Source: Psammoneis japonica
Taxonomy: Eukaryota
Direction of reading: 5' to 3'
Assembly: GCA_008632985.1 (NCBI GenBank)
Contig: QPGO01000032.1
Location: 555,330-619,329 of the forward strand
DNA: 64,000 bases
In this document: piece after piece, positions 27,190 to 61,700 of the stretch
Position numbering within the stretch: the stretch's first letter is position 1
How the letters are laid out: each line of letters starts with the position of its first letter
Notes under the pieces: model-generated
Databases searched by the model: none
Told to the model about the DNA's origin: nothing
What the model saw: the letters and a program-made list of their open reading frames with translations, nothing else
Translations under genes and position numbers: made by a program

Positions 27190-27465
27190 TGACAGAAATT
27201 GAAGGCAAATGGCAAGAATTCAAACAACAACTCCTTGCTGCTGTCTAAATGGCAGATGAGTCTCCGCTCAGAGACCGTTGCAGGAGCCGAAAGACGTGTA
27301 AGTCGGCACAATTGGGCCACTGTTGTTGTTCTTGTGAGCCTTGTGGCTCGAAAGCAAACTGCGTCGCACGTGAACGCGCGGAGCTAAAGCACACAAAACT
27401 GTGCGCGGCAAACTAAACAGCGCGCGACATTTCGCGTGCACCCAAATCCTGTTCAAATCCTGTCA
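27190..27465 (-). repeat. 3' LTR (276 bp)
   Basis: tgacagaaattgaagg...caaatcctgtca, preceded by TSD agacg. Confidence 0.96.
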
Positions 27466-27560
27466 CTCCCCAGTTTGCTTGAGGAGCCACAGAAACAGAT
27501 TCAACTTCGGATGGAATGAAGTTCCAGAACATGAGGGGGCAGAGAAGGTCCCAGATTTGG

Positions 27561-28125: not shown

Positions 28126-28126
28126 C

Positions 28127-28345
28127 TGACAGCAGATGAGTCTCCGCTCAGAGACCGTTGCAGGAGCCGAAAGACGTGCAAGTCGGTGCAATCGGGCTGC
28201 TGTTGTCATTCTTGTGAGCCTTGTGGCTCGAAAGCAAACTGCATCGCGCGCGAACGCGCGGAACTGAAGCACACAAAACTGTGCGCTGTGAACTGAACAG
28301 CGCGCGACATTTCGCGCGCACCCAAATCCTGTTCAAATCCTGTCA
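28127..28345 (-). repeat. Internal third LTR with a ~57-bp deletion
   Basis: tgaca|gcagatgagtctcc...tcctgtca, adjacent to the PPT. Confidence 0.93.
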
Positions 28346-28349
28346 CTCC

Positions 28350-30347: not shown

Positions 30348-30353
30348 GATGCG

Positions 30354-31802: not shown

Positions 31803-33673
31803 GTCGCACCACTGGTCGCGACGACGGGACCACGCTGGGTCTCAATGATGGCGCCAGCAGTGACAACAGGGATGTCTGCCAATTGATGGTCGTCAATGCC
31901 CTGAACGTCGACTTGGTGAGAGGTGTGTGCAATGACGCAAACGTCGTCGCCAGCAATGCCGCCGTTGGCCCCACGATCGACCAGAGCACCAGCGCGTGTG
32001 GAGCGATGAGCAGAGGCAGAGCAAATGACATTGTGGCCACCAACGCGGCGGCAAGTGCGGCCGTTGAGTTCCATGTCATCGGCAGGAGCTGGCGGAGTAG
32101 AGGGAGCGGCGGATGGCCCCGGTCGACTGGCGTTGGGGGCTTGGTTAGGAGACAACAGACGTTGCAGATCACCGGGTGGCAGTGGCTTGCGCTTGGTGAG
32201 GTGCGCCAGGATGGGATTGTCCGAAGTGGCACCCACATTTGGAGCGGGGTCACCAGAGTCAGCAGGAGTCGTGTTGGACAAGTTGACATCACCATCACTC
32301 CCAAGGCGTTGGTCGTGAAGGTTGGCCGTAATGGACTCATGGCAGTTGCTGGCTCGCGGGTTGCGGGGAGGCGGACGAGAATGCTCAAGGATGATCGCCT
32401 TGGAGGAATGGGGCAACGAATCCCAAATCCGTTGGTGGTCGGGAGGGAGACGTTTCCATTGGTCACCGGCGAGGCTGGGACCACGGGTGCAGGCAGCATT
32501 GGCCTGAAGGGCGTCAATGTCGCTGTCAATGTCGCAGAACACATCGTCGGATGGTTCCTCGGAGCAGACGTCGTGTGCGTGTGTGGCACGTCGGGGAGCT
32601 CGAGGTGTCGTCTTGGGTTGAAACGTGCTGTCGCATTGAGCCGCCGCGGAGAGGAGCAAGCCACAGCATTGATCACATGTGAGGCTCTTGCCACTCTGCA
32701 TGCGATGCTGATCAGCTTGGTTCTTGACAGCACGGAGTTCCTCGACAGGGTGTGCGGCATTCTCGAGCATGACGCGCTTCTGTCCTTCAGAGAAGTGGTC
32801 ACTGGCCGGGATGAGTGCCTCGCACTTGTGCAACTGATCTTGCCAATGAAGGATGAACCCATGGGTCGGACCTTTCCAAGTGCCATCACCAAGACGTGCG
32901 GTGGCAAGGTGCGTGAGCAAGGTGGAGGACTCGACAGATGCGCAGGTGGAGGCGAGCGCACACTCAGACAAGGCGCGGCAGATGGTCTGGGCGTCAGAAG
33001 ACCCCACATTTTCGCGAATGAGAGCCTTGCCCTTGTCGGTGAGAAGGATGCATTCGAAGATGGCGAACACGTGCTTTTGCTGTTCAGCAAAGAGCAGTTT
33101 GTCTTCGGGGCTGGTCGGTTTGTACGATGAGTCTAGAGTGCACTCGACGTCTTGGGCATGGGCTTGTGCCACAAGTGAGGTGTGCCAAGTGTGCCACTGC
33201 TTGTCAGATTTGAGAGCCGTGAAAGCAGTGGGGTCACGCTTGATGCCTCGCTTGAAGTCTCGCACCGGGTCGCGTGCCTTGGTTGGGTTGGTGACATGCG
33301 GAGGTGCAAGGGGTGAGCTGCCGATGGACACAGAAGACATGCAGTCGGGGCTGAGGCGGCAGGCAAGGAACTCGTCATGCGTGAACAACGAGGAGTCATT
33401 GGCAACGTCAAGACCTTCGTGTGCTTTGACAATGCACAGACCAGTTGGAGCTGCCAACATGTTCTTATGACCGCGGGGCAAAGGGATCACATTAGTGCCG
33501 TTGTCGCACTCAAGCGAGTCGATTTGGGACGGTGTTAACGTGAACAGTTCTTGACACGAGTCCGTGCCGTCTTGGGTCAAAGCCAAACGAAGAGGGCTCC
33601 CAGCACCTTGGGCAAGCACGGTTCCAACAACGTGCTCGAAACCATCGGTTTGTTGCTGACGAGTGAGAACCAT
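31799..33673 (-). pseudogene. gag: Copia gag and aspartic protease (mutated)
   Basis: DFKRGIKRDP and LVDRGANGG (protease). Frameshift or deletion near 31805. Confidence 0.88.
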
Positions 33674-34612
33674 GGCAGACAAAAGTGGTGTCAGGACAAG
33701 CAATTCTTGTTGGGAAGCGAAGGCAGACTTGAAACTTGGGTGAGAATGGACTTGACTTGAAATGGACTTGACTTGAAATCTTGAACTACCTTGAAATCAG
33801 AAGTCGCCGGGCTGTGCCATCCCGTTCGTTGTCAAGTGCTAAACTTCCCATCCGGTCCGCAGAGTTGTGCCGGCACGTCCGAACCCGCAGCCAGCGGCGC
33901 TTTGGGTTGCTTGCGAGCGGAGCAGCGGGTTGCAAACCCCTGCAGGCAAGCTGACCAGAGGTGGACAAGACCCCCGAACCATTCTTGTTTTACATCGGTT
34001 GGATTTCCCGATCAGGCTGGCCAGTTGACGCAGGCGTCAGGCGCTGTGGACGAACGAACAAACGCGGGAAAACACCCTCGCCCCAATGCAGGCTGCAATC
34101 ACGGCTGCTTGCTCTCACAGTCGTCCTCGTGGATCTAGCAGAACTGCAGAGCACCAGCAGTCTGGGGTAGATCAGGCACAACAGACTCGGCGTGCTTGCA
34201 GAGTGGCAGCAAAGCCGCAGTCCAAAGAGTGGGTTCAAGTCCTTGGCCGTGAAGATGTGTGTGTGTGTGCATGTCTTCAGCGACGAAGATCCTTGAATGT
34301 GTGGGGTTCTTGACCGTCAACCATTGAATGGGTGTGTCAAGGGATGAGGATCAAGGATGGACTTGGACATGACCGTTGAATGCATGTCTTCAGCGACAAA
34401 AGGCAGTGTGATCAATCCAGACATCCAGCGGCAAGGAGACTTGACGGTGACGTTAACTTCCTGCCGATGCCCTGGCATTGAATGCGTGCAGACTTGCCGA
34501 TGTGCGTAGAACACACACGGAGGTCCACGCAGAATTGAAATGCTGTCGTCGGTAAATCAATGACGACGATGGCGGTTGCTCAATGGGTTGACAATGAGCA
34601 AGACTGTCAATC

Positions 34613-34888
34613 TGACAGAAATTGAAGGCAAATGGCAAGAATTCAAACAATGGCTCCTTGCTGCTGTCCAAATGGCAGATGAGTCTCCGCTCAGAGACCA
34701 TTGCAGGAGCCGAAAGACGTGCAAGTCGGCACAATCGGGCTGCTGTCATCATTCTTGTGAGCCTTGTGGCTCGAAAGCAAACTGCACAGCGCGCGAACGC
34801 GCGGAACTAAAGCACACAAAACTGTGCGCGGTGAACTAAACAGCACGCGACATTTCGCGCGCACCTGAATCCTGTTCAAATCCTGTCA
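34613..34888 (-). repeat. 5' LTR (276 bp)
   Basis: Matches 27190-27465 and is followed by TSD agacg. Confidence 0.96.
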
Positions 34889-36819
34889 AGACGAATCGAA
34901 TGTACGACCGCATTGGATGTTGGGATTTCTTCATTGACAACTACAATGGCCACGGACAATCCCTTGCGAGCGGTCTCTTGCTCCTTTCCGTTGCTCTTAA
35001 TGGAGGTCACTTTCCAACGTGCAGCCCTCCCAAATCTGGGGTGCACAATGCAGTGCCGACTTTGAGAACAGCTTCCGTAGCTTCACACCAAAAATGATTG
35101 GATGCTCGATCCACGAACGTGCCAGCTTCTTTCCAAAACTGCAGTTCAACATGCATGCCCCATTTCCTCTAAGAATGCTGCGTTCGGCCAGCTGTCATTG
35201 CTGCGAAATCCGTCCACCAGCGTGCAACGTTTCGCCTCCTCAAGTGAGCAGTCTCCATTCACCATCCTTTTCGCGACATTCACATGGATTGGACCAATGA
35301 TCTTGTCGTCAAGCGGGTCTGCAATGGCAGCGACTTGGCACCACGTTTTGAGGACTTGTGAATCTTGAGGAAATGTGTCTCCACTCCATCCGCGCTCGCT
35401 TCCTTCATTTTGTGCAATCTTTCCGCAAGTGTGTGCACAAAAGCGGAACGCTCTCTGAGATCCTCCCACAAAAGCCACTGTGCACCCCACTCTGCTCCGC
35501 CCTCGGCCACGAGACCATGCGGCGAAAATGCATTCACGACCGAGAATTCCACCCATCCTCGCTTTTTCACGAGTTCCGTCTCCACTTGACTAAACATGAA
35601 GTGATGTCCGGGCATGCCTCGTGTGTGGGAAGCTGCAAAAACTTGTCAATGGAGAGCAATCGAGCCAGGTTCGCCTGCGTTTCACTGGCACATCGCGTGT
35701 GAACCCTTCAAAGGCCTCCCACAAAACATTCTTGTCATCTGGTCACTTCATGGTCAGCTTTTGACACATCTTGAGGTCATTCTTCTCACATTTTTCCTTG
35801 CAATGATCCAAGGCAAATTCGAAAAGTTTGTGACAACAAGCTTTTTTTTGGAGCCAGAAAGAATTTCCGCATTGCCTCGAACCATGCACTCAGTGACTTG
35901 GGACCACATTGGAGAACCTGCGGGGAACAGTCTTTCCTCGAGAATTTTGAGTTTGCTGTCCACTTGTTGGCTGGCCGTCCTTGCAGAATTCATGAATGCT
36001 TGGTTTGATGTCGTGGAATTTCTCGCATTGGCAGTCAAACCAGATCTGTTGGCTTTTGCCGCTGGCACTGCAAAGTTTGTCAATCCTGGTGGCCAGCGTG
36101 CCCTGACCTCGGCCCGCATCCAAGAGGGCGCGGCATGCGGCATTGCTGTCCCCTTCGCCTCGACCAGAGAGCTTCTTCGAGTCAAAGTTCCAAGTCTCGC
36201 ACCAAGGCAAGGAGGTTGTCACAGGTCCATTTTTTCTTCTTTCCATCGTTGCTCTCATTGATTGATTGGACGTGCTGCTTGATCATCTCTTGCCGCTCAA
36301 GAGGACCAAAGTGCACGTCCAGCGAATCCTCGTCAAAGATTGACAGCACAAGCGAGCAGGCGGAAAATTCTTGTGCCAATCGGTCAATCGGGCTGTTTGT
36401 TGTTGTTTCTTGGCTGCCTGCTCCTGGCGGTGTTGCCTTTGCATGCGGAGCGAGTTTCGCCAGAAGTGCTCTCCAGCAAGGGATCTTGTTTCTTCTCGCA
36501 CCATCCATTCAAACAACTCTGTTTCAAGTCTTCAAAGCAACGATGGAACAAAATGAAGCAATAAAGAGCACTCTAGCTTACAGATTGTGGAGAAGTAAGT
36601 GAATGTTGAATGTGATCATCAGATCATCAGTTCAGTCAGTTCGATTTATTGTTGTTTGTTGGACTGGAGGGTCCGTCCCTCCATCAGGAGGTTCGCGCAT
36701 GCTGCTTTCACTATCGCGCGCAAAATGCGCGAGCGACGAGAGAGGAGAAATGGGGGGGGGAGAAAGAGACGGGCCATTTGTCACATTTTCTGCTGTTGAC
36801 AACAATCGATCATCGATCA

Positions 36820-42655: not shown

Positions 42656-42759
42656 AATCATAGATTTGCGACTAATGTAAAATCCACTGAGTTGCCTGGT
42701 GTAATGCGGCATTCAGTTACCATGAGTAGTGGTTTTTGTCTGCGGGTATACAACAACAA

Positions 42760-44180
42760 CAAAAACATGTTGTGTTGAATCACCTCGCTTCCTCCTCACA
42801 GTCAAGGCGCGTGCGTGCAGCACTGTTGGCCCAAGCACAATGAGAATCACATCATTTGGGCACACATGTGTAGTGCGGGATTTTGGGATGTGCTGGACTC
42901 CCTCCGACCTCACCGCGGGGTTTCCACGAGGAAATCAAAAGAATTGGGCGTCAACAATGGTGAATTGAGCTTGTTTTTTTTTTTTTTTGCTCTTAACCTT
43001 CATTGTTTCTGGAGACCATTGCAGTCACAAAAACTCTGTCTCATCCTGACTTGCAAGCTGCTGCAATCTTGTCCAATCACAGAGACACCCACGCACACTC
43101 TGGGAGGGTTGATCTTGTGTGCCATGGTGCACTGACACCCACTGACCATCAGCAGGGTGGACAGTGCAAAATCAAGGCAGGAGTTGTTGCAAGTCACCGA
43201 GAGCATGACAGCTGTTCTTTTCCATGCAGGCCAGCACAAAAATTTGCTGCAAATGTTGAGAACAGCTTTCCAGGTTCTGCGTGGAGACAAGCATCCAAAA
43301 AAATCTGCAAAAACAGTGCTCAATGTGGTGGTGCCAAATGCAGCGATGGGGGCACTGCATCTGGCCAGAAATTGGCTGATCAAGCAAAGATCAAATCTTC
43401 TTAGGGGCAAAAAAACAAAAACTAAAACAAAAAAAGCCAGTGGTCAGTGAGGGCAAGTGGCAATCACCAAAAGAAAGAGATGATGGCAAGCCAACACGAG
43501 GTCCCTTGCCATTGGAAAAAGAAGCAGAGTGTGGCCACTCACAAAAAACAAAAAAAAGCCAAGCACCATGCTCTCAAAGCCCACCCATTAGCAAAGCAAA
43601 AGCAGCTGCTCTGTGGCTGCAAGTGTGAGTTTGGCACTGCTCAGCAGCTCAAGCTCCAACGAGCACGGCATTGGGCAACTGGAAGGACAAAAAATTGCCA
43701 AAAAAGTTGAGAAAGAGTGAGCAGCAACAGTGCACAGTTGGCAACAGAGGGGCAAGCAGATTTTGGATCCCACAGCCATGCTCAACCCCTGCAGCATTTG
43801 GTCTGATCTGGGCCTGGTGGGACACCACCTCTCAGCTGGCCCGGCTGGAGAAAGCTGGTGGCCTTTTTGTTTCTCACAACAAACAGCTCAGTGCCACATC
43901 AGCCCACAACATGCAAGTGGGCTCTGGGCAGCAAAAATCTCTTCTTTGGCTGCAGCAAGCAAGCATTTGACCTGCCGCCATTTGCAACAGACTTGCGACC
44001 CATGCAAAGGGGAGAGGACGAGGCTCTGGCCATCGACAGGCCTGGCTTTGGTTGGAGAGGTGCTGGTGTGTTGTGCACACATTCGAAGAGCAGCGCAGTC
44101 AGTGCACATCAATGAGAAGTGGCCACAAATGAGAACCAACGCACAAACGAGAACTTTGGGAGATGAGCGAATGCTCGCAA
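42760..44180. repeat. TpA/CpG-erased relic domain C
   Basis: Near absence of TA and CG between two normal genes. Confidence 0.7.
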
Positions 44181-44547
44181 CGTGTGAAGACTAGAGACAA
44201 CCCAGAAAACAGGTGGCAGCACGATGAAGAGTTAAGAATCAGTGAGGCAAAGATCTGTCCATTGTACATAAAAGTTCTATGAGTTTTACGAGCCACAACT
44301 TCAACTGAAGATTGCCCACGATCTTTTCCAGGATGTTCCGGACTCGCCGAATTCGCGGAGTATCACTTTCGCGGCATCTGATTCGCGGAACGACTCAAGT
44401 TGGGACTGCCACCGTCACTTTTCAGTCGATTCACTCGTGTTCTTGCGAACACTCATGATCACTTCACTTCTTGTGAAACACATCGTCACGCCAAAAAATT
44501 CTGAAGAACCCCATTTCTCCCAAACGATCAAGACTCTCAGTCAAAAG

Positions 44548-45018: not shown

Positions 45019-46365
45019 GCTGCATTTCTTTCACGAGCCAACAACCAAGAGCTCTCCTTCACTACGATCTGCAGCCTACCGTATCCCAAGTCCACAGCTT
45101 CCAGCACTTCCCAACTCAAAAGGAACTCCAGGACAGCACCAGAAGTCGGACCTTCAGAAGAATATGTACCGAGAGGAGCGATATATGCGTTATACACAGG
45201 CAGCAGGCGGCGTACCGGTATTACATCGCCAACGCCATTATTATCTAAAGAAGCGCCTTGCTTCGCCTAGGGATCTGCAGCTGCGAATCCAATAGGACTG
45301 CAATCACAGCTTGAGAAAAGGCTACACTTAACATATAAAGCATATAAAGTTTGCAACTTACAAAATAGTGGATCAATTATTTATCCTTCGTCGGCTACTG
45401 TATCATGTTCCGATCTACGGAGAGCTCGACGAAATTATTACCGAGGTAGAAGGTAGAGTTCTTATCGTTTCTCAAAAGGCTGCACACTTGACGAATGAGA
45501 AATCGAACTAATAGATCATTCGACGAATATGAAGAGGCGGCACTACAATAGAACATGGGCGTTGCGGGATGGACACCATAAATCTGCGTGTCTTCGTATT
45601 CGGAGAAACTAGCAAACAGACACTAGCTCCTTCAATTTGATGGTTGTGGGCAGAAGATCGAAGTGCAAGTGTGCATGAAACATGCAAAGTTTTGTGTGCG
45701 CCTGCACTTCGATTTTGGAGAAATAAAAAATTGAAGAAGTTTGTTGTGCCAAATGCGAGGTGGGCCATTTGGTGGGGGGCCCACGTGTGTTGCCCAAAGC
45801 TCGAGCAGGCCCCTGGTGATGACAACAAAAATCAATGGCCTCCCACTCATGGTCACCACACCACGTCAACAATGAAATGACCAGGTTTGTCTCTGACCAG
45901 AAGATCAAGACACTGCTTGCTGGTTGAGTGCTGCAGCCAAGCTCGCAAGGCTTGCAAGAAGCTCAGGCATTTGCCTCCAGCACGGCCAGACAGGCAAATC
46001 GAAGAGCCACAAGAGGAGCCAGCAGGAAGAAAGCAGTGGCTCCTCACTGCCATCTGTGTGGCTGCTGAGTCTCCATGCAGAGACCACTGAAAGTGCCAAA
46101 AGACATCATGCTTGTTGCAAAGTTGGCGCTGCTGGTCTGCTGCCACTGCTCTTGGTGGTGTGAGCTGCGTGTCTTGAGAGAGAAGAGCTGCACAATCGCA
46201 GTGGTGCGCAAGGAGTCAAGAGAACACATGCCTGTGTGCAAAAACTGGCAACTGGCACACCACACAACAAATTGTGTGCAACTGGCACCCCATTCAATCA
46301 GCCCAGTGGCTCCCCATTTTGCTTGGGGGAGCTGCAGAAGTGGGCTCAATGCTGGGTTGACTGAA

Positions 46366-46755
46366 GACGGGTTCCAGTCCTAGGTGGGACTCCGTGTGAC
46401 ATTGGGCCCGTAGAATTCTACGTGCGAGCTCCGTAGTACGAGAATTTAATTAATGTATGTGTTTATCTTTAACATCAAATAAACGGCCAAGTTTGTGGTA
46501 CAATTATGCCTCTTGCCACTCGACGTTTTTGCAAATGCGCCTGCCCTACGCGATTCTTAAGACATTATAGAATCGCGCTGTAACAAAAAATGTCAAAAGT
46601 TGTTGGACGGATCGCTCAATAAGTGTACCGTAAAATGACACAAAATATCGAAAAAATCACGTAGAAATCTACGTGCGCGACATACGACGTGATTCAAAAA
46701 ACTATCGATGTCACAGTTCAGTAGTGCGAGGTCCCACCTAGACCTGGAACTCGTC
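46366..46755. mobile_element. MITE, 390 bp, young and unmutated
   Basis: 25-bp TIRs GACGGGTTCCAGTCCTAGGTGGGAC and GACGAGTTCCAGGTCTAGGTGGGAC (3 mismatches). 4-bp TSD TGAA. Rich in TA and CG. Confidence 0.9.
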
Positions 46756-48649
46756 TGAAGGCCTCAAGACTGAGGAGCATGGCACGCTGCTCAGTTGGAG
46801 CTCCCCTGCAGTGCAGCCAGCTGAAGAGCTTCAAGCAGGGCAGGCAAGGACACAAGATCAAGGAGAGTGCACTGTGTCAGGGCAATGAGAGTGCTGTCTT
46901 GCTGGCAAAGAACTCAGAAGCTGAACATCCAGTGCCAAATGAGCAAAAAGCACGCAGGAGCCATGCGACACTTGTTTGTGGCTGACAACAAAGAAAAGAC
47001 AATCTGACAGCCAGATGGTGCCCAGCCAAGATCATGCTTGCTGCCTGCTTTGCCAAGCTGCCACAAGAATTTGGTGCCATTCATCAAACTTTGAAGCCAG
47101 GTCATCATGAACATGGACAACAATCCCCCAGTTGATGACCTGAGCCACAGCAGAATTGTGCTGGAGAGCACAAAGAGCATGCTCACCTTTGAGCCACAAA
47201 AGAAGCAATGAAGAAGGTGGCAGGCCCAGCTGCAAATCTGCAATCAAGGAATTTAGCAAGTGATGCACTGAAGGCAAAGCAACCTTTTTTGGAGCTCCAG
47301 TTGGCTGGGGAAATGAAAACAAGAGGAGCGGTGCAGCAGCAAGGGTGTGCTCTTGACACAATGCAAAAAGACAAGGTGGTCAAAGAAAAGATGCAATTTG
47401 GCTCACTTTTCCAGTGCCTGTCAGAGTGTGTTGACTCTGCACCCAAAAGCTCAAGCACTTGCAGCCCAGAGCACACCCGTGCAGGGCCAGCACAGCCAAC
47501 AACTCAGCTGACACTAAGATGGGACCCAAAGCAGAGCACGGTGCTGGGGAGTGCTGCTGCGCTGCCTTGCTGCTTTGTGACAGTGACAACATGCAACTGC
47601 AACACAAGAAGACCCACTCTGCTGAGCCACAAATGAAAATCAGCCCTCTGGACATGGGCAAGCTGTCACTCACTCCGCCATCAAACCATGGAGGGTCAGT
47701 GGTGTGCTGCAATGCACAGCACAGCTTCAATCTAACTTTGTGTCTGCAAGCCACTCTGCTGTTGTTGTGAAGCTGGAGGGCACACAAAAATGGAAAAGAT
47801 GAGCTTCTTTCCATCAATGGCATCAGGTGCACAAATGGGTCAAATGGTGCCATTGTGACAGCATGCACAAAATGAACCCTTCTTGTGAGTTGGTTGACAT
47901 GCCATGCATGTGGAGCATTGGCACATGATTGTGGCAACATGCTGTGACATCTCTGCAGCATGGCAGCATTTTGGTCATTCTTGCAGTGTGGTGTGTTCTT
48001 TGTGCTGACTCTTGAAGTGCAAGTGCTGTGAAGGTGCGCACACTCCAAACATGCAGGCAAAAAACACCAGATGCCCTGGTGCTGCACACAAAGAAAAGAA
48101 AACAATGCACACTCTCCTTGTGAACAACTGCTGCTTGCTTGAGAATGTGCCTCTTTTGTTTTGGTGTCTGTGTCAAAGAAAGAGTCAGCAAATCTCTGCT
48201 CTGTGAATGGCAGATGAAGATCATGTCTTTGAAGTTTGAGGGAAACACGGCGCCTTTGTCATTTTCAGCTCCAAGCTTTGTCTGGGCAACAAGGCTGGAG
48301 CTGTGGACAGTGATGGGGTGGGAGAGTTGAGAGGAGCACCCTTCAAGCAAGATGCAAAGTGAGCAGAGACAGGGACACTTGTTTCATGCTGGTGGTTTCA
48401 TCTGTGGTGATCATGCCAGTGCTTTGTTCTGTCACAGCCCACATGATTTGACCACTTTCTCAGTGGCGCACAGCTGAGCAACAGATGAAGAGGTCAATTT
48501 GATGTGGGGGAGACATCTCATGCTGGTCATGTGTGGCCAAATCATGCTCTTTCTTGCACATCAGCAAAAAGAAAAAGTTGTGCACTCTCATGGAGAGAGC
48601 TCAGACTTGAGATGCCTCAAGCTTGGTGGCAGAAAATCCTGCTGAAGAT

Positions 48650-49150
48650 GAAAGCTGTGACATGCCAGCAACAAGAGTGGCAACAGCTTTGTTTTGCACT
48701 GTGCTTGTCTTGCTTGACATGTGTGACCCCCTTCTGTTGGGCTGCAATGCTCCTTTGCCAACTTTGCATCTGTTGGCAAGGACGATGGTGCAGTCTGGAG
48801 GTGAAAGAAGAAGGCCACAGCTTTTCTCTGTTCTCAGCACAGCCCACACACCCCAACAAAACAGCAAAGCTGTGCAGGGGCTTGTGCTGACCCCCACAAA
48901 CTTGTGTTTGGCTTTTCTCAGCTTTGCTTTCAGGCTTTTCTAGATTCTCAATGAGCCCAGCAATGGTGCTGATCTCAGTGTGCTGACAGCACTTGAGTTG
49001 GTGCACCTTGGAGGGTTTAGCAGCATGCTTGTGACTCTCAGCCACAGCCAGCTTTTTGCTGAGTCTGGCTGATGTGTGCTGAATGTGACAGTGTGGTGAA
49101 GGACCTTTTGTGAGATGATCACTTTTTGAGCATGCAGAGCATCTTGTTCA
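48650..49150 (+). repeat. Decayed dispersed repeat homologous to ~59945-60440
   Basis: Shared blocks tctctgttctcagcacagcc, aaaacagcaaagctgtgcag, ttctagattctcaatgagcccagcaa and cacttgagttggtgcaccttg. Confidence 0.85.
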
Positions 49151-51641
49151 GCAAGAAAAGAGCAGTTTGTCTGGCTCAAACAGCTCCAAAATGAAAGACT
49201 CTTTGCTCAATGCAAAACAACCAGCTGCAGCACACGTCAGTTGAAGCACATTGCCACAGCAATGCTCAAAAAAGGAAGATGTAGACAAGCCCCTTTGAGC
49301 ACAATGTTGACAGCAGCAGTGTGATGCTGGTGAATGAGCTTCTGAACCCACAGGAAATGCTGAAGAGAAGTTCATCTGCAAAGTGGTTTCCCCACTCTGC
49401 AAACGCACTCTGAGCCACACATTCTGCTGCAACAATGGCACAGCCAGAACACAATTTGTGAAAATTTGCTTCAGCTCAGAGTGTTGGTTTTTTTTTCACT
49501 CAGCTCAGAATGCCAACCTGAAATGTGCAGCTCACAGAGGCAGCTTTGACAAAATTGATTTGCAGAGCAACTGTCACAAACAATTCAAAGGCCAGTCATT
49601 GCAAAGTGCATCATTTCACAGCGCACTTTGGTTGTTCAATCTCCAACAAATTGCCCATCATTCATTTCAGTCATTTGCTGCTGCAACACTTTGATGCAAA
49701 ACATCTTGTGCACTCAAAAGCTCCATGTTCTTTTGTGTTTTCACATTTTCATGTTTTGTGTTCAACAAGCCGTTGTGACCCAGCTGCACATCTGGCATGA
49801 TGGAAGCTGCCACTGCACTTTGTTTTGACTTCATCCACCTTGGCCATTGCCCCCCTCCTTCTTGTGTTCTTGTGCTCCCTTGTTCTTGTTGCTTGCCCAC
49901 TGTGCTCCACCCCTGTTCTCTTTGCTGGCACTGCAACATCTGTTTGCCCATGAGCCACTTTTGTTGTCTTCTTTTCTGTTTCGGTGCTTCATCAAAATGT
50001 CAGACACGACACTCTGCTGTCTTGCCTCCTGTGCGTGCACCATTTTGCAGCTGCCATCATTGTCAGGAGCCACTTTGTTGCCTGTCCAATCCATGCACCT
50101 TGTGTTTTTTTCTCTTCTTTGCAAAGAAAGCCCACAGCAAAATGTGTGCTCAGCAACATTGTGCCAGCCATGTTTCTCCTTTTTGTTCATTGCCTTGCCT
50201 TGTTTTTTCATGTGCTGTTGCCCTCTGTTTGCCCTGAAACAGCATTTTGTGTTCTTGTGTTTGTGCAGAAGCTCTCTTCATGCATCTGCTCTCTGTCTCT
50301 GAGCTTGTTGCGCTTCAAACCATCAATTGGTTTCACCAGCTGGTCCCATTTTTTGTGTTTCTTCTCTGTTTGCATTTGTTTGACAGTTTTTTTTTGTCAT
50401 GGACACAGTTTCTCTTCAAAATTCCACCCAGTTTTGAACCTCATTTCTTTTTGTTCATGTTTTTGCACACAAGATGTTTGGGTGGCAGAGCAACCACAGC
50501 ATGACACTCACTTCACAAGGTCATCAAAAATTGTTCAATTTTTCCTCTCACACTCAATGTCACCATGTCTGCACTTTGGAGTCTTTCATTTGAATCTTGT
50601 TTTGCACCCTCCATTCTTGCACAAAGGGCTTTGCATTGCACTCAACTTTCTGCTAAAAGCTTCCAATGCCTGTTTGCTTGCAACCCTCTCAGCACACTTG
50701 CTTGCCATCACAGGTCATCAACAACGCCTGGCTCACTGCAAGCGCCATCTGGTCAGGTGTGACCCATGAATCTGCTGGCTTTGGGAAGCCAGCGTGTGAC
50801 ATTCTTTTCAAACATGCAACTGGCCCATGTTCTTTGAAGAGCAGCAAACATGAGTTTGATGCTCCCAAAATGCACAAAGAACTCTGGGACTCAACCAAGA
50901 AAGGAACATCTTCACCCACTTGATGAAGAGCACAACATTGTCCTTTCTTCCTGTGACAAATTGTTGAAATTTTTGGAGTCTGATTTTCTCAAACTCTTCA
51001 GTGTGTCCAAAAATGAGGCACAATTTGATCTTCAAGCCCTTCCTTGCCTGTTTTCAGGATTTGGCAGCATGCGCCAAACATGGCTGGCTGTTCAAGAATG
51101 AAATGGAGTGACACACTTGCCCCTCTTTGCACCATTCTTGTGCCCCTGTGCCATCACCACAATGAAAAGTTAGCTCTCAACCACAAGTGTGCTGAAGCCA
51201 AAGACAAATCCTCTCCATGCATGACAGTGTGGCTGTTCTCAAATCCAGCTCCAGCAAAGCCAGCAGTGGTGCCAATGGCCATTGCATGAAGGAGTCTCTC
51301 ACTTGCCTTCTTGTCACCCACAAAATTTTTGGTGCATTTGCAGCTGCAAAGATTTTGTGGAGACTGATTTTGACCAATGTTGAGCCCAAGTTGCTGGAGT
51401 GCATTCCTTCTGCCCCCCACAGCAAGGACATGGACTGATTTGTTGACGGGCTCAGCTGGAAGAAACTTGGCAGAGCCAAACAAAAGAGCTGTGGCCAGTG
51501 AGAGCTGTGTTGCTTCATTGACATGTGGGGCAGTGCTGTCAAGTGGGTCTGCCACCTGGACAAGAAAAAATGAAACAGCATGTGGTTGAGAGGCACCACA
51601 GGGCATCAATGCCAAGCCACTCATGATGGCAAACGTGCCAA

Positions 51642-51939
51642 GATGCACTCCAACCTGGGCAGGACTGTGCACAACATTCACTCACAGAATTCTGCGCACA
51701 AACTTTGCAGCTTGTGTTCTGGTCAATGGGTGCATTTGTCTTCAACATCCAAACAAGTGACCAAATTTGCAGCATGCCCACCACACCTCTCAATGCTCAA
51801 AGCCATCTCTAAAAAAAATTGTCAAAAGTTGTTGAGTGGATCACCCAACAATTGCGCTGCAAAGTGACACAAAATTTCACAAAAGTCATGCAGAATTGTG
51901 CATGTGCAACATGAGGTGCACCTGCAGCTGGAGTGCATC
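51642..51939 (+). mobile_element. Old, hypermutated relative of the 46366-46755 MITE
   Basis: Collinear homology (tgtcaaaagttgttg...tgacacaaaat...). Remnant TIR gatgcactcca/tggagtgcatc. Degenerate TSD ccaa/ccac. Confidence 0.8.
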
Positions 51940-54324
51940 CCACCAACAAGAGCCCACCCACTGCTGTTCCAGCCACCAAAATGCTCTCCCACCCTGAGTG
52001 GCTGGGTGCAGCCAGACATGTTCGAACCCCAGGCGGGGCTCCGTCTGACATTTGCCTGCAGAGTTCTGCAAGCTCCACAGCAAAATCATTGGGTGATGAA
52101 CACATGAATGACAACCAACAGAAAAAGATGCAATTTTGTGAGTGCATCTCCTTCTCCAAACTTGAAGCACTTGAGGCATCCTGCAAAGACTCAACTTTGC
52201 TGCACAGAGTTCACACACAGATCTGCACACAACACGTGCCAGAGATCATGTGTGGGCAAGATGCAGAACCCCAGTGCTGATTTTTGATCCAAGATTTTGT
52301 CTCTGACAGTGTGAGTCCCACAAAAATTGTGGATCAAACTCCTGTGCGGGACTCAACATGACATGACTCAGAGGAGCCAGATGACAACAACATCTCTTTC
52401 TTGCAAGACCCAATGAGCCACACATGCATGGAAAGATTGTTGCTCAAGAGTGGATCAATTGCAAAAGTCAAGCTGCATCTCACACCATTGTGTGTGCAGC
52501 AGACATCACAAACAGTTTAAAATCCAATGCCCTCCCAGCTTGCAATTTTGAGGAAAAGTCTGATGACACCTTTAGACATGATGATGTGAGACACAATTTG
52601 ATGCCCCCCCCCCCCCAACCTTTTTCCCCAGCACATGCTTGAGACACTTTGATGCCTCTTTCTCTGCAATGCTCAACATGTTGACAGAATGATTGTTGCA
52701 GAAAATCTTTGCTCCACTCAGTGGATTCATTGCAGCCTCAACAACAAAAAGGGAAATGAAAAGGCTTTGCAAAACAGGGAGGAGTGTCAAACAATTTTGC
52801 ATGAGGCAGCATGCAGAAATGAGCATGCATGACATGTGGCATGATCCAAAAAAGGTCCCACCTGCCAGCTGCACCAACAGAGCTGGAGTGCACCTGAAAT
52901 GGCAGCTGCAGCATGCTGCACACAGCCCCACCACATTTGTTTTGCACCTGGCATGTGGTCAATGCTCCTCTGCTCTTGGTCATTTTTCTCTGCAGGGTCT
53001 TGGAGACATCCATTCTCTCACCTTTTCAACCAAGCAAATCTCATCCAGGGAAGATGCCCTGTGCAGATTTTTCCTCTTCATCTTACACACCAATGCCTTG
53101 TGTGGTTGCAACATGCATCCATGGCATTCTTTCCTGCCCCCCAATTCCTGTTTTTCTCCACTGCCCAAAACTGAGCTGCAGAATCTCAGTCACATTTGCC
53201 ACGTGGTGTGGTGCCATTGTGTTTGCAACAAGTGCTTTCCATCATGACAAGGATGACCAAAAGGAGCAGAGCTCAAGGTGGTGGTTGGATGGTGAAAGAC
53301 TCCTCACCCCTTCTTGGAAACATTGAGGAGGACAACACAACAGAGTCAGTGGTCTGGCAGATGGATTCTTAGAAGTTGGTGATGAAGATGCCATTCAAAC
53401 GGCATGATGAAATCTTGCACAGCTGCATGGAAGTGCATTGTCTTTGGCAGCTCCTGTTGTGGCAGGCACTGCAGTGCAAAGCACTTCAGCTTGAGCACCA
53501 TCACACTGCAGAACAGCTGAAGTGTCCATGCACTCATCCCACCCATGCACATGCAGAGTTCTTCAGCATGGACACATGGTGTGCAGGATTTGGACACACC
53601 AAGATTGGGGACAAGTTTTTGAAGACTGACATTCAATCTGATGTGGAGACACAGTTATGTTGTGAGATGTGCATCCTGATGACTGGAAAGATTCATCAAA
53701 TGAATGCAGTGCATGGCACAATGTTTTCTTCATTCAAAGCTCCAAGCACGAGAACAGATGTCATTGAACCAGCCATGCAGACACGCAAAATCGGTCTTTT
53801 GCCACGGCATGCCGCCAAAAAATTGCTTGAGCGTCATGAGAAGGGAAACGGAGCGACTCCAGACTGAAATGTTTGAGCACGGATCTTTGGGAAGAAATGC
53901 GAGAGAAAAGCCGAAAAGCACCGTCTCTTGTTTGCATGCTGGACTCGCAACAACGCAAAATTTTGAAAATGCTCATAGATTTGCCTGCTTTTACTTACAG
54001 GCCGCCATCATTTCACATGTGAAAAGTTGAAACAGTGCCTGCCATGCCGAATCCAGAAAAAAAGACTGGCTGGCAGGCTTGTGCCATTACTAGAGTAGAG
54101 CCTCTACGCTGCGGGAATGAACGAGCCTTCTGTTTGGCACAGACAGAAACGCTCTGCGGTTGCCCATGCGTTCATTTCCTACTATCGTAAAATTATATTG
54201 GAATGCTGCTCTTCGTGTTCTCAGGTCCGAAGAAGCAGGGCTCTACTATTATCCACCTTTGATCGTGGCCTCCACGGTGACGGATCCATGAATGAGATAG
54301 AAGCTACCCAAGTAGAATAGTACC

Positions 54325-58099: not shown

Positions 58100-61000
58100 T
58101 CGTTTTGCAAAACCACACACAAAATGATAAAGATGAGTTTCTCCATTGACGTCACCAGTGCAAAAACAGGTCAAATGACAAAGTCACTGTGATGTTGCAT
58201 GTGCAATGACCCCTGCCCTCCTGATGGGTCAGTTGATGCTGTGTGTGTGCAGCATCAGCAGATTGTGGCAGCACACTGTGACACCTCTTTGCAGCAGCGC
58301 TGCATTTTGGTCATCATTGTGGCGTGAGTTGTTTGTGCTCCTGACTCTCAGAGCACAAGTGCATCAAAGCTGTGTGCTCCAAAGCCACACACACAAAATT
58401 TTGGAGGAAGCAGAACCAGGTTGTGCTACCTGAAACAATGATGCACCACGCTCTTCTGGACTCCTCATGCATGGACAGCACCGTTGCTTGCCAGAGGAAG
58501 CACCTTGGTTTTTGTGTTTCTGCAAAAGAAAGAGCCAGCAGAGAGTGCACCAGCTGCAGCACCACTGGTCTTGACCAGCACACCTTTGAATTTTGGGGGC
58601 AATCATGTCACCTTTGCCATTTTTAGCTCTGAATTTTGTCTGGACAACAAGGCCAGAGATGCGGGCAGCAAGGGAGCAGGGGGGGGGGGTCAACAAAGAA
58701 CTTTCTTTTGGAGCAAGAAGTGCTTGAAGCAAACAAACAGGGGTGCATGTCTCATGCTGGCAGCTTTGTCTGTGATGCAACCAGTGCTTTAAAACGCTGC
58801 CAGCCCACACTTGATTGCTTCTTTTTCTCTGTGGCGAGCAGCTTGCAGCATGAAGAGGCCAAGTTCTTGATGACTTGTTCCAGACTTAGGTGGCGCGCAC
58901 ATGCCCCTTTTCGCAGAAAAAATAATTTTTTAATGCTTTATGGAACACCGTACATATTTAATAAAATTGATCATATAAATGGCTTCTAAGTAAAATAAAC
59001 AGAATAAACTCGAACAAACAAACAGCCAAACCGGCCATGGCTTTCAGTGACCATGACGGCCCACTTTTTTCAGCCTTATGGAAAATTGAATGTCATGACC
59101 AGGATCTCCGTATTTGATATAGTCTGTGTCATCAACAACAATAGTGAAAATGCTTGTTGAAGGCTGCAGCGCGGCACAATAATGCTAAATCTGTCAGCAA
59201 CAACAATTGAGCCTCTATTCACTCACAATTTGCCTCTAAGGACCATTTCTTTTCTATTACCATGTATATTTCCTCAATATATTCGACTGATTCAAGTGTA
59301 TCAATCGTTTATGCCTTTTAAACCGTGAAAAATGGTCCGAAGTCGACGCCATTGCGTGGGCTGAGCTACACTTCTTCTCACGTCGTCCTAAACTTATTAA
59401 TCAACGTATGCTTTATTCGATCCGTTGAGTGTAACTCGTATTTGCGTATAGAAACAAAATATTAATTATGCTATGTTAAAGACTTAATTTATATATATTA
59501 ATAATATTTTATATGTTTCTTGTTACATTAAGGCATATATAAATAGCTCATCGGAAAATTCGAGCTCTCAACTTACGGTACAATTTAGCGACTAACAACT
59601 GAGTCCATCAACAGTTTCGAATACATGGGTACACGCACAAGACAATTCTGTATGTACCCATAACAACACATTTGTAAATTGTTATGTTTTTACTATCGAA
59701 AATGGTACCGCAAGTGTGGACCGCGCGTTTCATGCAAAAAGGGTCTTTTTTCGCGCGTGAGTGCACCTAAGTCTGGAACAAGTCTGATGCAGGGAATGCA
59801 GTTTTGTGCCGTGTGTGTGTGTGGTCAGATGTGCTGCATGTCTCTTGAACATCAGCAAAAATTTTAAGTCATGGACAATTCACATTTTGAAAGAGTTGAA
59901 AGAATGTAAGATGGGTCGAGCTTGGCAAAAGAAAGTCCACTCAATGTGAGAGCTGTGACAGCAAGAACAACAGCAAGAGTTGTGTTTTGCCTTTTGTGCT
60001 TGTTTTGCTTGTCATGTGCACTCCTTCTGTTGGACTGCATTGCTCCATTGCCAACTTTGCTTCTGCAATTGCAAAAGACACCAACATCATCTTGAAATAA
60101 AAAAAAGAAGGCTGCAGCTCATCTCTGTTCTCAGCACAGCCTCTGCAAATGCACCCCAGCAAAACAGCAAAGCTGTGCAGCGACTCTTTGTGCTGACTCA
60201 CAAACTCAGCTTGGCTTTTCTCTGCACTGCCCAGACTTTTCTAGATTCTCAATGAGCCCAGCAACAACATTGATCTCAGCATGTGCCAACAGTGCACTTG
60301 AGTTGGTGCACCTTGAAGAGTTCAGCAGTGTGCTTGTGATTCTGCACCATGGTCAACCAGCCACTGACATGTGCCAAAGGTGACAGCACAGCAAAGGACC
60401 TTGTGGAGAGTGCTTTGAGAGCATGCAGAGCATCTTGTGAAGGAAGAAAAGAGTGGGGTCCAGCTGCCTGACCCCAGGCAGCTTTGAAACAAAAAAATCA
60501 TCTGAAGGGGCAGAAAAAAGCCTGCTGTGACAAAGATTGGCTGGAGCTGCCCACAAAAAGGAAAAGGAGCTCAAAACTTCTTCATGCATTCTCATCTCTC
60601 ATCCATGGACAAGCTTGAAAAAATCCAAAGAACCCTTTGCTCAGGAAGAGATTGACAGCAGCAGTGATGACAACAAATGAGCCAAGCCTGCAGATCTCAC
60701 AGAAAAGTTGAAGAGATGCCAAACCAGGGTGTTGAAGACAGAGGAGAGGTGAGACAAAACCGGAGGATGCAGAGCAGTTGGAGAAAGCAGGTGTGCTGAA
60801 CAGAGAGTGGAGTGCACAACTGCACTGCTCCTCCATCATCAGCCCTGTCCAGACCTGAGCACAAAAGAAAAAGCAAGCCATGAGCCACAGCATCACTGCA
60901 ACCCCAATGTGCTGCAGTCCCTCAGCAACATTGCCAGCCCCCACCAGCAAAACAACAGCGCAAAAGTTGCTCATGCATTTCACAGCTGCTGTGTGCTCAG

Positions 61001-61700
61001 ACAGCAGGGTGCTCTGCATGTTCTTCTCTGATGGGGAGCTTGGGCATGTGGCAAACTTCTTGGGTGCATGTTTGTTGTTGCCAACTTTCAACTCTCATCA
61101 TCAGCGTGCTCTGGTGCTGCTTTTGAAGCTCCAAAACACTTGGCCAGACTTGTCAAGGAGCACTGTGCGCATGCTGCAGTGCAACAAAAGTGCTCTCCAG
61201 TGCACAAGTGAGGTGCTGTCATGTTGCAAAAAAGCTGCCTCCGTGCCCTCCTTCCCAGATCAACAGATCAACTTGAAACGCACTCCTCTCCCTTGGCTGG
61301 GTTGTGCTGCAACAAGCTTGTCTGCCACAATCAAAAGTTGCTGAAAATGAAGGCTTTTTCACCAGAGAGGCAGAGATCTGCACAAGTGCTCCAAATCTTT
61401 TGTGGTGCAAGCGTGCCGCTGATGTGCAGCAGATGGGAGCAGCGCCTCTGAGCACCGTGGAGCATGGCTCTGCAACTTTTCCCCAGTTCTGGAAAGTTTG
61501 TGGCATTCTTGCATTGGCGGGTGTAGCAACTTGTTCTATCCTCTTCAAACTCTTCACCAAAATCATCTTGAAGGTGTCATCAAAAAACTGCTTTCTGTTG
61601 GGCTTGCCTTGTCGAAAATGTGGTTTCAAAAAGTGCGGTGGAAACACTGTTGATTGTGGCTCCAAAGCAGCCAGACAACAATGGTAAATTCGAACACAAA
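58100..61700. repeat. TpA/CpG-erased relic domain E
   Basis: TA and CG are nearly absent at 58100-58870 and 59790-61700. Confidence 0.75.
58872..59784. mobile_element. Non-autonomous TIR element, 913 bp, young and unmutated
   Basis: Perfect 21-bp TIR GACTTGTTCCAGACTTAGGTG and 4-bp TSD TGAT. AT-rich, TA-rich non-coding interior. Confidence 0.93.

Follow-up and report, generated by a model that had tools for sequence, protein, structure and literature searches.

A mutation process that acts at the DNA level on transposon copies only, changing TpA to TpG or CpA site by site and followed by a slower loss of CpG, probably produced the TA- and CG-depleted blocks of the window (probability about 0.7), the window being the whole 64,000-nucleotide stretch of Psammoneis japonica DNA analyzed here. 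Within this window, such a process would act on transposon copies and leave genes and other non-coding DNA alone. After insertion of an element, TpA would be changed to TpG or CpA (A:T to G:C) on either strand; the slower change of CpG to TpG/CpA in the same copies would then be explained by ordinary methyl-CpG deamination. The window represents three stages: fresh insertions (stage 0; a MITE of 390 bp and its 913-bp relative), copies with TA gone and CG kept (stage 1; a Copia cluster at 26–37 kb), and copies with both gone (stage 2; blocks at 12–18, 43–44, 46–54, and 58–61.5 kb and two old MITE copies). The obvious enzyme to propose is a DNA adenine deaminase, by analogy with the proposal for the alga Bigelowiella natans, while one enzyme acting on both TA and CG steps at different efficiencies is an alternative. 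The window itself shows the site specificity, the direction, the action on both strands, the independence of the copies, the confinement to elements and the loss of TA ahead of CG, while the enzyme, CpG methylation, the manner in which elements are recognized and the tempo are what we infer here; the analysis was based on one assembly and reads from one sample, which is probably the source of that assembly.

The window is diatom nuclear DNA, with an ABC1 kinase ORF at 1504-3699 (minus strand) that was 72% identical to that of Fragilaria crotonensis and 66–69% identical to those of other diatoms. Gene-bearing DNA was normal in composition (O/E of 0.5–0.7 for TA and about 1 for CG). The altered DNA lay in the following blocks:

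11988..17797, minus strand: block D1, one old copy of the Copia-type element of block D2, with TA and CG fully converted (end-to-end alignment with 30426-36523)
26200..36560, minus strand: block D2, clustered partial Ty1/copia copies (RVT_2, E 1e-23 and 2e-22)
42750..44190, no strand assigned: block D3, converted (5 TA, 29 CG)
45725..53975, no strand assigned: block D4, made up of a patchwork of old repeats nearly without TA and CG, with a young MITE inside (from TA/CG positions)
58130..61520, no strand assigned: block D5+D6, split by the 913-bp element, an old paralogue of 47800-49385 (from RY-coded 30-mer matches)

In the converted blocks the TpA O/E was 0.01–0.1, that of TpG/CpA was about 2 and G+C was 0.475–0.55, and TG and CA were about equally frequent in every fully converted block. 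D1 (5810 bases) retained 15 TA and 50 CG beside 694 TG and 689 CA, and positions 46756-53750 of D4 retained 14 TA and 37 CG beside 810 TG and 836 CA; at the right edge of D4, CG reappeared at about 53750 and TA at about 53975. None of the 20 ORFs tested in converted DNA scored above the Pfam cut-off, and two ORFs tested in D3 gave no Pfam match. The fully converted blocks are taken as old transposon copies, a putative origin for most of this DNA. The alignment of D1 to 30426-36523 scored 923 (shuffles 519 ± 27), and the compositional edges of D1 were only about 25–60 bases from the alignment ends. Since the edges of the block were those of the Copia element, conversion is confined to elements.

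Once its insert was removed, 58134-60930 was paralogous to 47800-49385 in D4, with 1101 identities, 296 transitions and 110 transversions in 1507 columns; 214 pyrimidine-purine steps were concordant and 63 had TG in one copy and CA in the other. In the alignment of D2 with D1, which was 59% identical with 13% transversions and may be misaligned in part, TG stood against CA at 134 of 616 steps, and the 317 CG steps of D2 corresponded to 114 TG, 100 CA, and 11 CG in D1 (214/317 TG or CA). Paralogous copies thus differed in outcome at about 22% of steps, which indicates that conversion struck each copy on its own, once it had inserted, and could fall on either strand.

Two elements inside the converted blocks were unconverted:

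46366..46755, plus strand: unconverted "young" copy of a non-coding MITE, 390 bp (from sequence, inverted repeat, TA/CG counts and read-contig loose ends)
46366-46390 and 46731-46755: terminal inverted repeats of the MITE, 25 nt, differing at 3 positions (88% complementary)
46362-46365 and 46756-46759: 4-bp target duplication TGAA, flanking both ends of the MITE
58872..59784, plus strand: second unconverted element, 913 bp, with a terminal-repeat core in common with the MITE
58868-58871 and 59785-59788: target duplication TGAT of the 913-bp element

The 390-bp element is a MITE, being short, non-coding and present in high copy number, with terminal inverted repeats and a target duplication; no ORF of at least 200 aa overlapped it. 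Read-contig loose ends began at 46366, its first base, and summed read-contig depth over it was about 103,000 compared to about 60 in unique DNA, depth not being equal to copy number. The 3565 read-contig pieces placed on a 20-kb stretch fell, by depth, mostly on the two young elements, and 465 of them were at least 99% alike. The inverted repeats, target duplication and very high read copy number together mark the young MITE as a real insertion. It contained 28 TA and 28 CG (O/E 0.91 and 1.52), against 0 TA and 11 CG (O/E 0 and 0.24) in the left flank (45725-46365) and 1 TA and 4 CG (O/E 0.03 and 0.10) in the right flank (46756-47400). Because conversion reached both of its ends, the MITE arrived after its surroundings had been converted; it belongs to a very abundant family with recent activity and landed, not long ago, in debris that had been converted by then.

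Like the MITE, the 913-bp element is an unconverted insertion inside a converted block, with O/E values of 0.87 (TA) and 1.21 (CG) compared to 0.06–0.08 and 0.08–0.18 in its flanks, and a summed read depth of 2500–3900. The pattern GTTCCAGNCYYRGGTGG had four matches in the window (0.22 expected), all of them at the termini of the two elements. A paralogous, uninterrupted (empty) site for the 913-bp element was found inside 48464-48541, confirming 58872-59784 as an insertion.

Two old copies of the MITE lay within D4:

51642..51960, plus strand: old converted MITE copy with internal deletions (from alignment to the young MITE)
52015..52411, plus strand: second, more decayed converted MITE copy, directly downstream of the first (score 148.5, null maximum 96)

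A transition-tolerant local alignment of 46365-46756 with 51560-52010, in which the scoring favors transitions, scored 263.5 (261.5–263.5 for the old copy at 51642-51960), while 200 shuffles scored 63.7 ± 9.9 with a maximum of 94.5. In its 319 columns there were 205 identities, 91 transitions and 23 transversions. The 320 bases at 51641-51960 held 1 TA and 2 CG. The 25 aligned TA steps of the young MITE were 13 CA, 6 TG, 1 TA, and 4 other dinucleotides in the old copy, and its 22 aligned CG steps were 11 TG, 9 CA, 1 CG, and 1 AG. TG or CA therefore occurred at 39 of the 47 aligned steps, compared to about 23.5% TG+CA expected from the surrounding domain (1646/6994 steps). Counted by context, 49 bases were changed and 46 unchanged inside TA/CG steps, against 65 and 159 for other bases (Fisher p = 2e-4). 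Plain match/mismatch scoring reduced the alignment to 112 columns but kept the pattern (TG/CA at 8 of 9 CG and 4 of 7 TA steps). The transversions, 23 in 319 columns, show that this old copy had also aged ordinarily. For the second old copy, convincing alignment to the MITE was limited to the first ∼110 bases; the two old copies had 21 converted steps in common, which agreed in outcome at 11 and differed at 10. The MITE pair thus offers a true comparison of a single DNA transposon before and after conversion.

A first-pass annotation of the window had proposed this comparison from the letters alone. The homology of the two stretches (score 263.5), the change of nearly every TA and CG of the young copy to TG or CA, and the insertion of the young copy after conversion, in which the 913-bp element concurs, all held, and its three quoted sequence examples were found in the alignment. 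The start of the old copy at 51642 also stood, whereas its end, put at 51939, lay at 51960. Calling the young copy untouched was slightly too strong: its 28 TA and 28 CG are kept, but 7 of its 19 TG steps were CA in the old copy, and it has G at 46459, 46461, and 46726 where other family copies in the reads have A (TA instead of TG). With these mismatches and variants, the young MITE may not be pristine.

The Copia cluster D2 is an intermediate stage, in which TA was lost without loss of CG. Over its ∼10 kb, 54 TA (O/E about 0.1) and 648 CG (O/E 0.65–1.0) were left, and its TG and CA counts (974 and 871) were less even than in the fully converted blocks. Internal duplicates were 91–94% identical. 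Among their 96 differences, 90 were transitions and 89 lay in pyrimidine-purine steps, while ordinary positions had 8 transitions and 4 transversions in 596 (1.3% transitions). Over 1154 bp, the duplicates had 4 TA-TA, 7 TA-versus-TG/CA, and 17 TG-versus-CA steps, from which about 87% of TA steps are estimated to have been converted per copy; for CG, 60 CG-CG steps compared with 30 CG-versus-TG/CA. Relative to background transitions per step, these counts give rough rates of ∼150-fold for TA and ∼15-fold for CG, roughly tenfold faster for TA, based on small counts from three duplicate pairs assumed to have been identical at the start. Only 1 of 256 bins was CG-poor and TA-normal; the near absence of such DNA fixes the order, TA before CG, and speaks against joint loss.

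The direction of change was read from the reverse-transcriptase ORF of D2. At 16 columns that are mostly Tyr in 25 homologues, 5 codons were TAY, 6 TGY (Cys), and 3 CAY (His), and four invariant Tyr were among those lost. The replacement of Tyr codons by Cys and His codons fixes the direction as TA to TG/CA. In 80 related Copia loci from metagenomes, TA O/E ranged from 0.35 to 1.02 (median 0.74). Five of the seven residual TA of this ORF were in Tyr codons, a hint that the element was partly converted at a time when selection still acted on it, or that sequence context plays a part.

These results do not agree with three other parts of the first-pass annotation. Conversion of TA and CG jointly by one process is contradicted by D2, which lost TA with CG still at an O/E of 0.65–1.0; for TA, a slow process is at odds with ∼87% of steps converted against 1.3% transitions at ordinary positions; and the region-wide converted domain dissolves into a mosaic of old transposon copies, individually converted, with edges that are element edges. 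It follows from this mosaic structure that position inside the domain says less about exposure than had been assumed.

An episodic system resembling repeat-induced point mutation (RIP), for example premeiotic, could instead have converted TA and CG together across a domain, with the young copy arriving after the last episode. Five blocks nearly without both TA and CG, their sharp edges and the two unconverted elements within converted DNA would fit it, as would reports, in the parts of these sources used here, that the TpA process of B. natans was active in only 11 of 15 lines (10.64898/2026.01.13.699255) and that DNMT4, a protein grouping with fungal RID, is encoded by many diatoms (PMC9998398). 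Such a system appears unlikely given that D2 lost TA and not CG at rates about tenfold apart, that the order of loss was fixed (TA-normal, CG-poor DNA in 1 bin of 256), and that the blocks were separate element copies independently converted. Nor were there strand-coherent runs of outcomes (63, 26, and 24 runs compared to 66.5, 29.7, and 20.2 expected), and A>G would be unexplained by an enzyme like a cytosine methyltransferase. The random strand of the hits and the likeness of MITE-family read pieces, ranging from 85 to 100% with no obvious gap, lean towards many separate hits, without settling between episodic and continuous action. Alternatively, the unconverted copies might be exempt and not young, as short non-coding elements that go unrecognized (too short, unmethylated or without a matching small RNA) and convert slowly if at all. 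Both are indeed short (390 and 913 bp) and of one terminal-repeat type, in an extremely abundant family with many pieces at least 99% alike; but two older MITE copies were fully converted, 9 of the 10 best-supported read variants inside the MITE were TA/CG-step transitions, which means that family copies do get hit, and the target duplications were intact with well-preserved element ends, leaving exemption a quite doubtful explanation.

The remaining two explanations are far less probable. Under a genome-wide neutral mutation bias, unconstrained DNA would drift to a TA- and CG-free state and selection would hold the normal DNA, in keeping with converted blocks that are intergenic and without recognizable coding content. 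This is very improbable, since O/E at codon boundaries of five long ORFs was near normal (TA 0.62, CG 0.80), six stretches without long ORFs had TA at 0.49–0.72 and CG at 0.91–1.11, block edges were element edges, and the rate seen in the D2 duplicates (∼87% of TA lost, 1.3% transitions) would leave no silent TA in genes. An artefact, whether modified bases of silenced DNA misread by the sequencing chemistry or an assembly fault, has in its favor that a single sample underlies all data and that no library type is recorded for the runs. It is hard to credit, as D4 was reproduced over 5489 bases, with 2 differences, by independently built contigs of run X1, misreading of a palindromic step from both strands should not yield clean TG or CA with TA/CG never appearing, indels and 7–13% transversions were also present in converted copies, and the Tyr to Cys/His codon changes of the reverse-transcriptase ORF were coherent.

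The TpA-then-CpG process proposed here resembles several known systems in part. RIP in Neurospora and other fungi is premeiotic and acts on duplicated sequence, changing C to T mainly at CpA, which creates TpA and lowers G+C. As in RIP, the changes in the window were sharp-edged dinucleotide-context transitions limited to repeat or mobile DNA, which ruined coding capacity and spared genes. In contrast to RIP, TpA was destroyed, TG and CA were the products, and G+C did not fall (0.475–0.55); the fungal signature of raised TpA was reversed (TpA O/E 0.01–0.1, TpG/CpA about 2). Also unlike RIP, the process coexists with a family of hundreds of near-identical copies, which argues against efficient action triggered by duplication.

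The substrates of ADAR and APOBEC enzymes are RNA or single-stranded cDNA, so that retro-copies bear the footprint on one strand; ADAR prefers U before the edited A. The deamination-type transitions are shared, whereas here both strands were hit equally and a DNA transposon, the MITE, was converted. Editing of RNA or cDNA was rejected because the MITE has no RNA copy step. The decay of methylated CpG, known from silenced transposons of vertebrates and plants, leaves TpA alone. The second step would correspond to it, with CG changed to TG/CA only in transposon copies (20/22 steps in the MITE pair; 214/317 from D2 to D1), at a rough ∼15-fold over background as estimated from sequence. Diatom transposons carry CG methylation, according to the part of PMC9998398 used here.

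For a transposon-directed mutation footprint of this type, the one report to date is a preprint about an unrelated alga. In mutation-accumulation lines of B. natans, the sections of that preprint drawn on here describe 230 new A>G/T>C changes within integrated viral DNA, each of which fell at a TpA and which arose in some lines only (Mettrop et al., bioRxiv 10.64898/2026.01.13.699255); the targets were integrated giant-virus and virophage DNA (10.64898/2026.01.13.699255). As far as these sections go, the two systems have in common TpA-restricted changes to TpG or CpA depending on strand, in the A:T>G:C direction (here on either strand, at 19/25 TA steps of the MITE pair and as TAY to TGY/CAY in 9/16 Tyr columns), confinement to foreign or mobile DNA (here, within this window), action that is probably not constitutive in the diatom either, and clusters poor in TpA and rich in CpA+TpG with an excess of reverse-transcriptase and DDE domains. 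The rate over background is given as about 1000-fold in B. natans; here it was roughly ∼150-fold over background transitions, from small counts. The hosts differ, a diatom (stramenopile) here and a chlorarachniophyte there, as do the targets, a Copia retrotransposon, MITEs and old repeats compared to the viral inserts of the preprint's account. A second stage, with CpG lost from the same elements, is seen here, and none is described for B. natans in those sections. The B. natans changes were observed in mutation-accumulation lines, whereas those in the diatom are deduced from one assembly, and they had come near saturation in the diatom, with a TA O/E of 0.01–0.1 compared to the 0.45 that the preprint gives for the B. 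natans viral region.

The window is nuclear diatom DNA, with an ABC1-kinase ORF sharing 72% identity with Fragilaria crotonensis and 66–69% with Attheya and Seminavis. Dinucleotide odds per kb, 250-bp bins and a map of all TA and CG positions revealed five blocks in which both steps were nearly absent and TG and CA were about doubled, and a further block depleted in TA only. Steps of TA or CG that now read TG or CA are termed converted, and O/E denotes observed/expected. The limits of the doubly depleted blocks were taken from TA/CG positions.

about 11965–17800: doubly depleted block
26200–36560: TA-only block (TA O/E about 0.1, CG O/E 0.65–1.0)
42750–44190: doubly depleted block
45725–53975: doubly depleted block
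46366–46755: young MITE (390 bp), with 25-nt terminal inverted repeats that mismatch at three positions and without a long ORF
51642–51960: first old MITE copy
52015–52411: second old MITE copy, more decayed and downstream of the first
58130–58870: doubly depleted block
58872–59784: second unconverted element (913 bp)
59790–61520: doubly depleted block

Genes lay within normal DNA (TA O/E 0.5–0.7, CG about 1). At the codon boundaries of five long ORFs, O/E was 0.62 for TA and 0.80 for CG, and six normal stretches without long ORFs had values of 0.49–0.72 and 0.91–1.11, respectively. The depletion is not genome-wide. At two block edges (45725–46365 and 11988–12400), TA was absent and CG only partly depleted, with 11 CG to the left of the MITE (O/E 0.24), while at the right edge of the 46–54 kb block CG resumed about 225 bases ahead of TA. 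A host-like HYR-domain gene (ORF 9334–10878, minus strand) was also TA-poor over its 3′ two thirds (9480–11075), with 10 TA in ∼1600 bases (O/E 0.13–0.32) and CG at about 0.7; its two tandem units differed by 28 transitions and 32 transversions, and so were unlike products of the transposon process. Sequencing run X2, from the same sample as the DNA reads, was RNA-like and covered 40014–42716, 44493–45365 and 54165–57943, one contig falling into five pieces across 40014–42716 with gaps of about 85–120 bases (small introns). The highest X2 depth (548) was on the contig at 44493–45365, so the island of normal DNA at 44.2–45.7 kb, between two converted blocks, seems to hold an expressed gene. X2 coverage of the converted blocks was nil, and no inference is drawn from this.

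Both MITE stretches named in the first-pass annotation were present as described. The young MITE is flanked on either side by TGAA, which may be read as a 4-bp target duplication, and contains 28 TA and 28 CG (O/E 0.91 and 1.52). It lies 640 bases inside the third doubly depleted block, with no TA and 11 CG in the 641 bases to its left, and 1 TA and 4 CG in the 645 bases to its right. Transition-tolerant local alignment of the MITE with 51560–52010 scored 263.5, compared to 63.7 ± 9.9 for 200 shuffles. The 319 columns comprised 205 identities, 91 transitions and 23 transversions, in a type of alignment that favors transitions. Among 22 aligned CG steps of the young copy, the old one had TG in 11 and CA in 9; for 25 aligned TA steps it had CA in 13 and TG in 6. 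About 23.5% TG or CA would be expected from the composition of the surrounding DNA. Plain scoring aligned only 112 columns, yet TG or CA still stood at 8 of 9 CG and 4 of 7 TA. The proposed pairwise alignment was thus significant, with differences enriched at TA and CG (20/22 CG and 19/25 TA to TG or CA).

The second unconverted element, 58872–59784, shares a terminal-repeat core with the MITE. The core pattern matched four sites in the window (0.22 expected), all of them the ends of these two elements. Its TA and CG O/E were 0.87 and 1.21, compared to a TA O/E of 0.06–0.08 in its converted flanks, and it is bordered by a TGAT target duplication. The paralogous stretch at 48464–48541 is uninterrupted and has a single TGAT, which confirms 58872–59784 as an insertion into pre-existing repeat DNA. 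Insertion after conversion, as earlier proposed for the MITE, is therefore well supported for both elements, whose flanks were already converted. An end motif, GAC..GTTCCAG.C.TAGGTGG, was common to both (46366–46390 and 58872–58893), and both target duplications begin with TGA (TGAA and TGAT). No transposase gene was found within the 64-kb window. Candidate older copies of the 913-bp element had marginal scores (165.5 vs. a null maximum of 147.5), and a metagenome scan for the MITE interior, written as a degenerate pattern, had no matches.

The blocks themselves were traced to transposons. Two segments of Ty1/copia reverse transcriptase (RVT_2, E 1e-23 and 2e-22) lay in the TA-only block, along with internal duplicates of 91–94% identity. 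Further paralogy emerged when the sequence of the window was reduced to a purine/pyrimidine code, in which transitions are invisible. The block at 11988–17797 (D1) aligned over its whole length with the opposite strand of 30426–36523, within the TA-only Copia cluster (D2), scoring 923 against 519 ± 27 for shuffles, and 47800–49385 aligned with the 58–61 kb block, insert removed, over 1507 columns at 73% identity. Compositional edges of the 11988–17797 block fell about 25–60 bases from the alignment ends. Given these edges and paralogies, the "converted domain" of the first-pass annotation is not a regional state; the blocks are separate old element copies, or mosaics thereof. Most of the fully converted DNA is identified solely through paralogy: none of its 20 ORFs exceeded curated Pfam cut-offs (DUF4134 was sub-threshold, E 0.008), and a search for LTR pairs in D1 and D2 found none.

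Independent conversion of an ancestral TA or CG in each of two copies should leave TG in one and CA in the other at half of the steps converted in both, an outcome for which ordinary mutation needs two adjacent transitions. Such discordant steps were common: 63 (214 concordant) between 47800–49385 and its paralogue, 134 (482 concordant) in the Copia pair D2/D1, 17 within 1154 bp aligned between duplicates inside the TA-only block, and 10 out of 21 in the pair of old MITE copies. The copies were therefore converted independently, after insertion, copy by copy and on both strands. In the TA-only duplicates, 90 of 96 differences were transitions and 89 lay in pyrimidine–purine steps. TG and CA counts were about equal in all fully converted blocks and less even in the TA-only block (974 TG, 871 CA). 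Outcomes formed no strand-coherent runs (63 vs. 66.5 expected, 26 vs. 29.7, and 24 vs. 20.2). Editing of RNA or cDNA is excluded for the MITE because it moves as DNA.

The coding sequence gave the direction of change, from TA to TG or CA. In the reverse-transcriptase ORF at 29271–30353 (minus strand), a majority of 25 homologues have Tyr at 16 columns; of these 16, the codon here was TAY in 5, TGY (Cys) in 6 and CAY (His) in 3, and four family-invariant Tyr were among the losses. Selection for DNA free of TA and CG was considered and rejected, since outcomes varied at random from copy to copy and family-invariant Tyr codons had been lost. Metagenome relatives of the Copia element (n = 80) had a TA O/E of 0.35–1.02 (median 0.74), and the unconverted Copia state is TA-normal; because the seed peptides contained Tyr, the codons of which are destroyed by conversion, converted relatives would escape detection and this set says nothing about other hosts. 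Three of the 80 loci (L004, L024, and L075) had CG O/E of 0.22–0.24, TA of 0.41–0.49 and TG/CA of 1.4–1.6; partial conversion in other hosts, or CpG decay alone, may account for them. Conserved Tyr codons hold five of the seven residual TA in the ORF, which could reflect sequence context, or partial TA loss while the lineage was under selection. The TA steps that survive in 26200–36560 and in the fully converted blocks had a non-random context, with ATAN almost gone. The 26–37 kb block retained ATAT 0, ATAC 1, ATAG 2 and ATAA 3 times (87–228 in normal DNA), the best survivors being CTAA (15) and CTAC (14). An additive fit, on small counts, suggests that a purine is preferred two bases ahead of the converted A.

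Rates were counted on three pairs of duplicates, all non-redundant, inside the TA-only block. Their 596 ordinary positions showed 8 transitions and 4 transversions, CG was kept in 60 cases and stood against TG/CA in 30, and TA steps were TA in both copies in 4, TA vs. TG/CA in 7 and TG vs. CA in 17. From these small counts, an estimated ∼87% of TA steps were converted per copy; the rough rate per TA step was ∼150 times the background transition rate and ∼10 times the CG rate. CG conversion was roughly 15 times background, a ratio typical of methylated CpG. Opposite 317 CG steps of the TA-only Copia element, the fully converted paralogue D1 has TG in 114 cases, CA in 100 and CG in 11. Only one of 256 bins was CG-poor with normal TA, and TA-only bins fringed the converted blocks. 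Both steps are indeed lost, but given the differing rates and the near-absence of CG-poor, TA-normal bins, two processes, a fast one at TpA and then a slower one at CpG, explain the pattern better than the single conversion first proposed. The description of conversion as slow fails for TA, with ∼87% converted per copy.

Reads came from three runs, all of one sample in one study. In the only DNA run with contigs from this stretch, these piled up on the MITE to a summed depth of ∼103,000, compared to ∼60 in unique DNA. Contigs of run X1 stopped at 46393 and restarted at 46728, and none among those listed bridged 46365 to 46756, as contigs of an empty allele would. On a 20-kb stretch lay 3565 contig pieces, most of them, judged by depth, on the two young elements; likeness was at least 99% in 465, 95–99% in 1021, 90–95% in 1487 and below 90% in 592. 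As evidence on bimodal versus continuous conversion, these classes are no more than suggestive, the pieces being short and of mixed origin. Among the 10 best-supported variant places within the MITE, five were TA here and TG or CA in other copies, one was CG to CA, three were TA in other copies and TG here, and one was a transversion. Depth, likeness and variant places together indicate a family of high abundance and recent activity, on whose copies conversion visibly acts. The young copy, earlier called untouched, does retain its 28 TA and 28 CG, but those three places, and the 7 of its 19 TG steps that are CA in the old copy, indicate that it may already bear a few hits.

As to tempo, conversion may be episodic or continuous; the random choice of strand and the spread of likeness lead us to lean toward many separate hits. 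An alternative to recent insertion is that short elements of the MITE family are poorly recognized by conversion. That both old copies were converted argues against full immunity of the family. The evidence as a whole comes from one assembly and from reads that probably belong to the same sample. A bolder reading, to which we give slightly less than even odds (about 0.45), is a diatom transposon defense that deaminates adenine in dsDNA at TpA, element by element, a "reverse RIP". Together with methyl-CpG decay it would erase both self-complementary pyrimidine–purine steps in a fixed order, making TA and CG content a two-hand clock of copy age, and the active MITE family would outrun or evade it. 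We infer an enzyme and a targeting signal; diatoms are culturable, crossable and editable, and both could therefore be found there. New here are a DNA transposon seen before and after conversion, with RNA-level editing ruled out and direct site rules, the staged order of TA then CG with rough relative rates, and post-conversion insertions that make tempo testable across one very abundant family.

Fungal RIP follows a like logic, with opposite chemistry and opposite compositional outcome. To our knowledge, targeted A:T>G:C hypermutation of eukaryotic DNA was unknown before a 2026 preprint on one chlorarachniophyte, and a full-text literature search for TpA hypermutation in diatoms found none. 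Diatom DNMT4 clusters with fungal RID (PMC9998398); a relative of cytosine methyltransferases would not account for A>G. In mutation-accumulation lines of Bigelowiella natans, integrated viral DNA was hypermutated from TpA to TpG or CpA, with on/off activity between clonal lines (bioRxiv 10.64898/2026.01.13.699255). This is the closest match, having in common the site rule, action on both strands, confinement to foreign DNA and non-constitutive activity, and differing in host lineage, targets, and the near-saturation and extra CpG stage seen here. If the bolder reading is true, P. japonica and B. natans would show that two widely separated SAR lineages have such a system.
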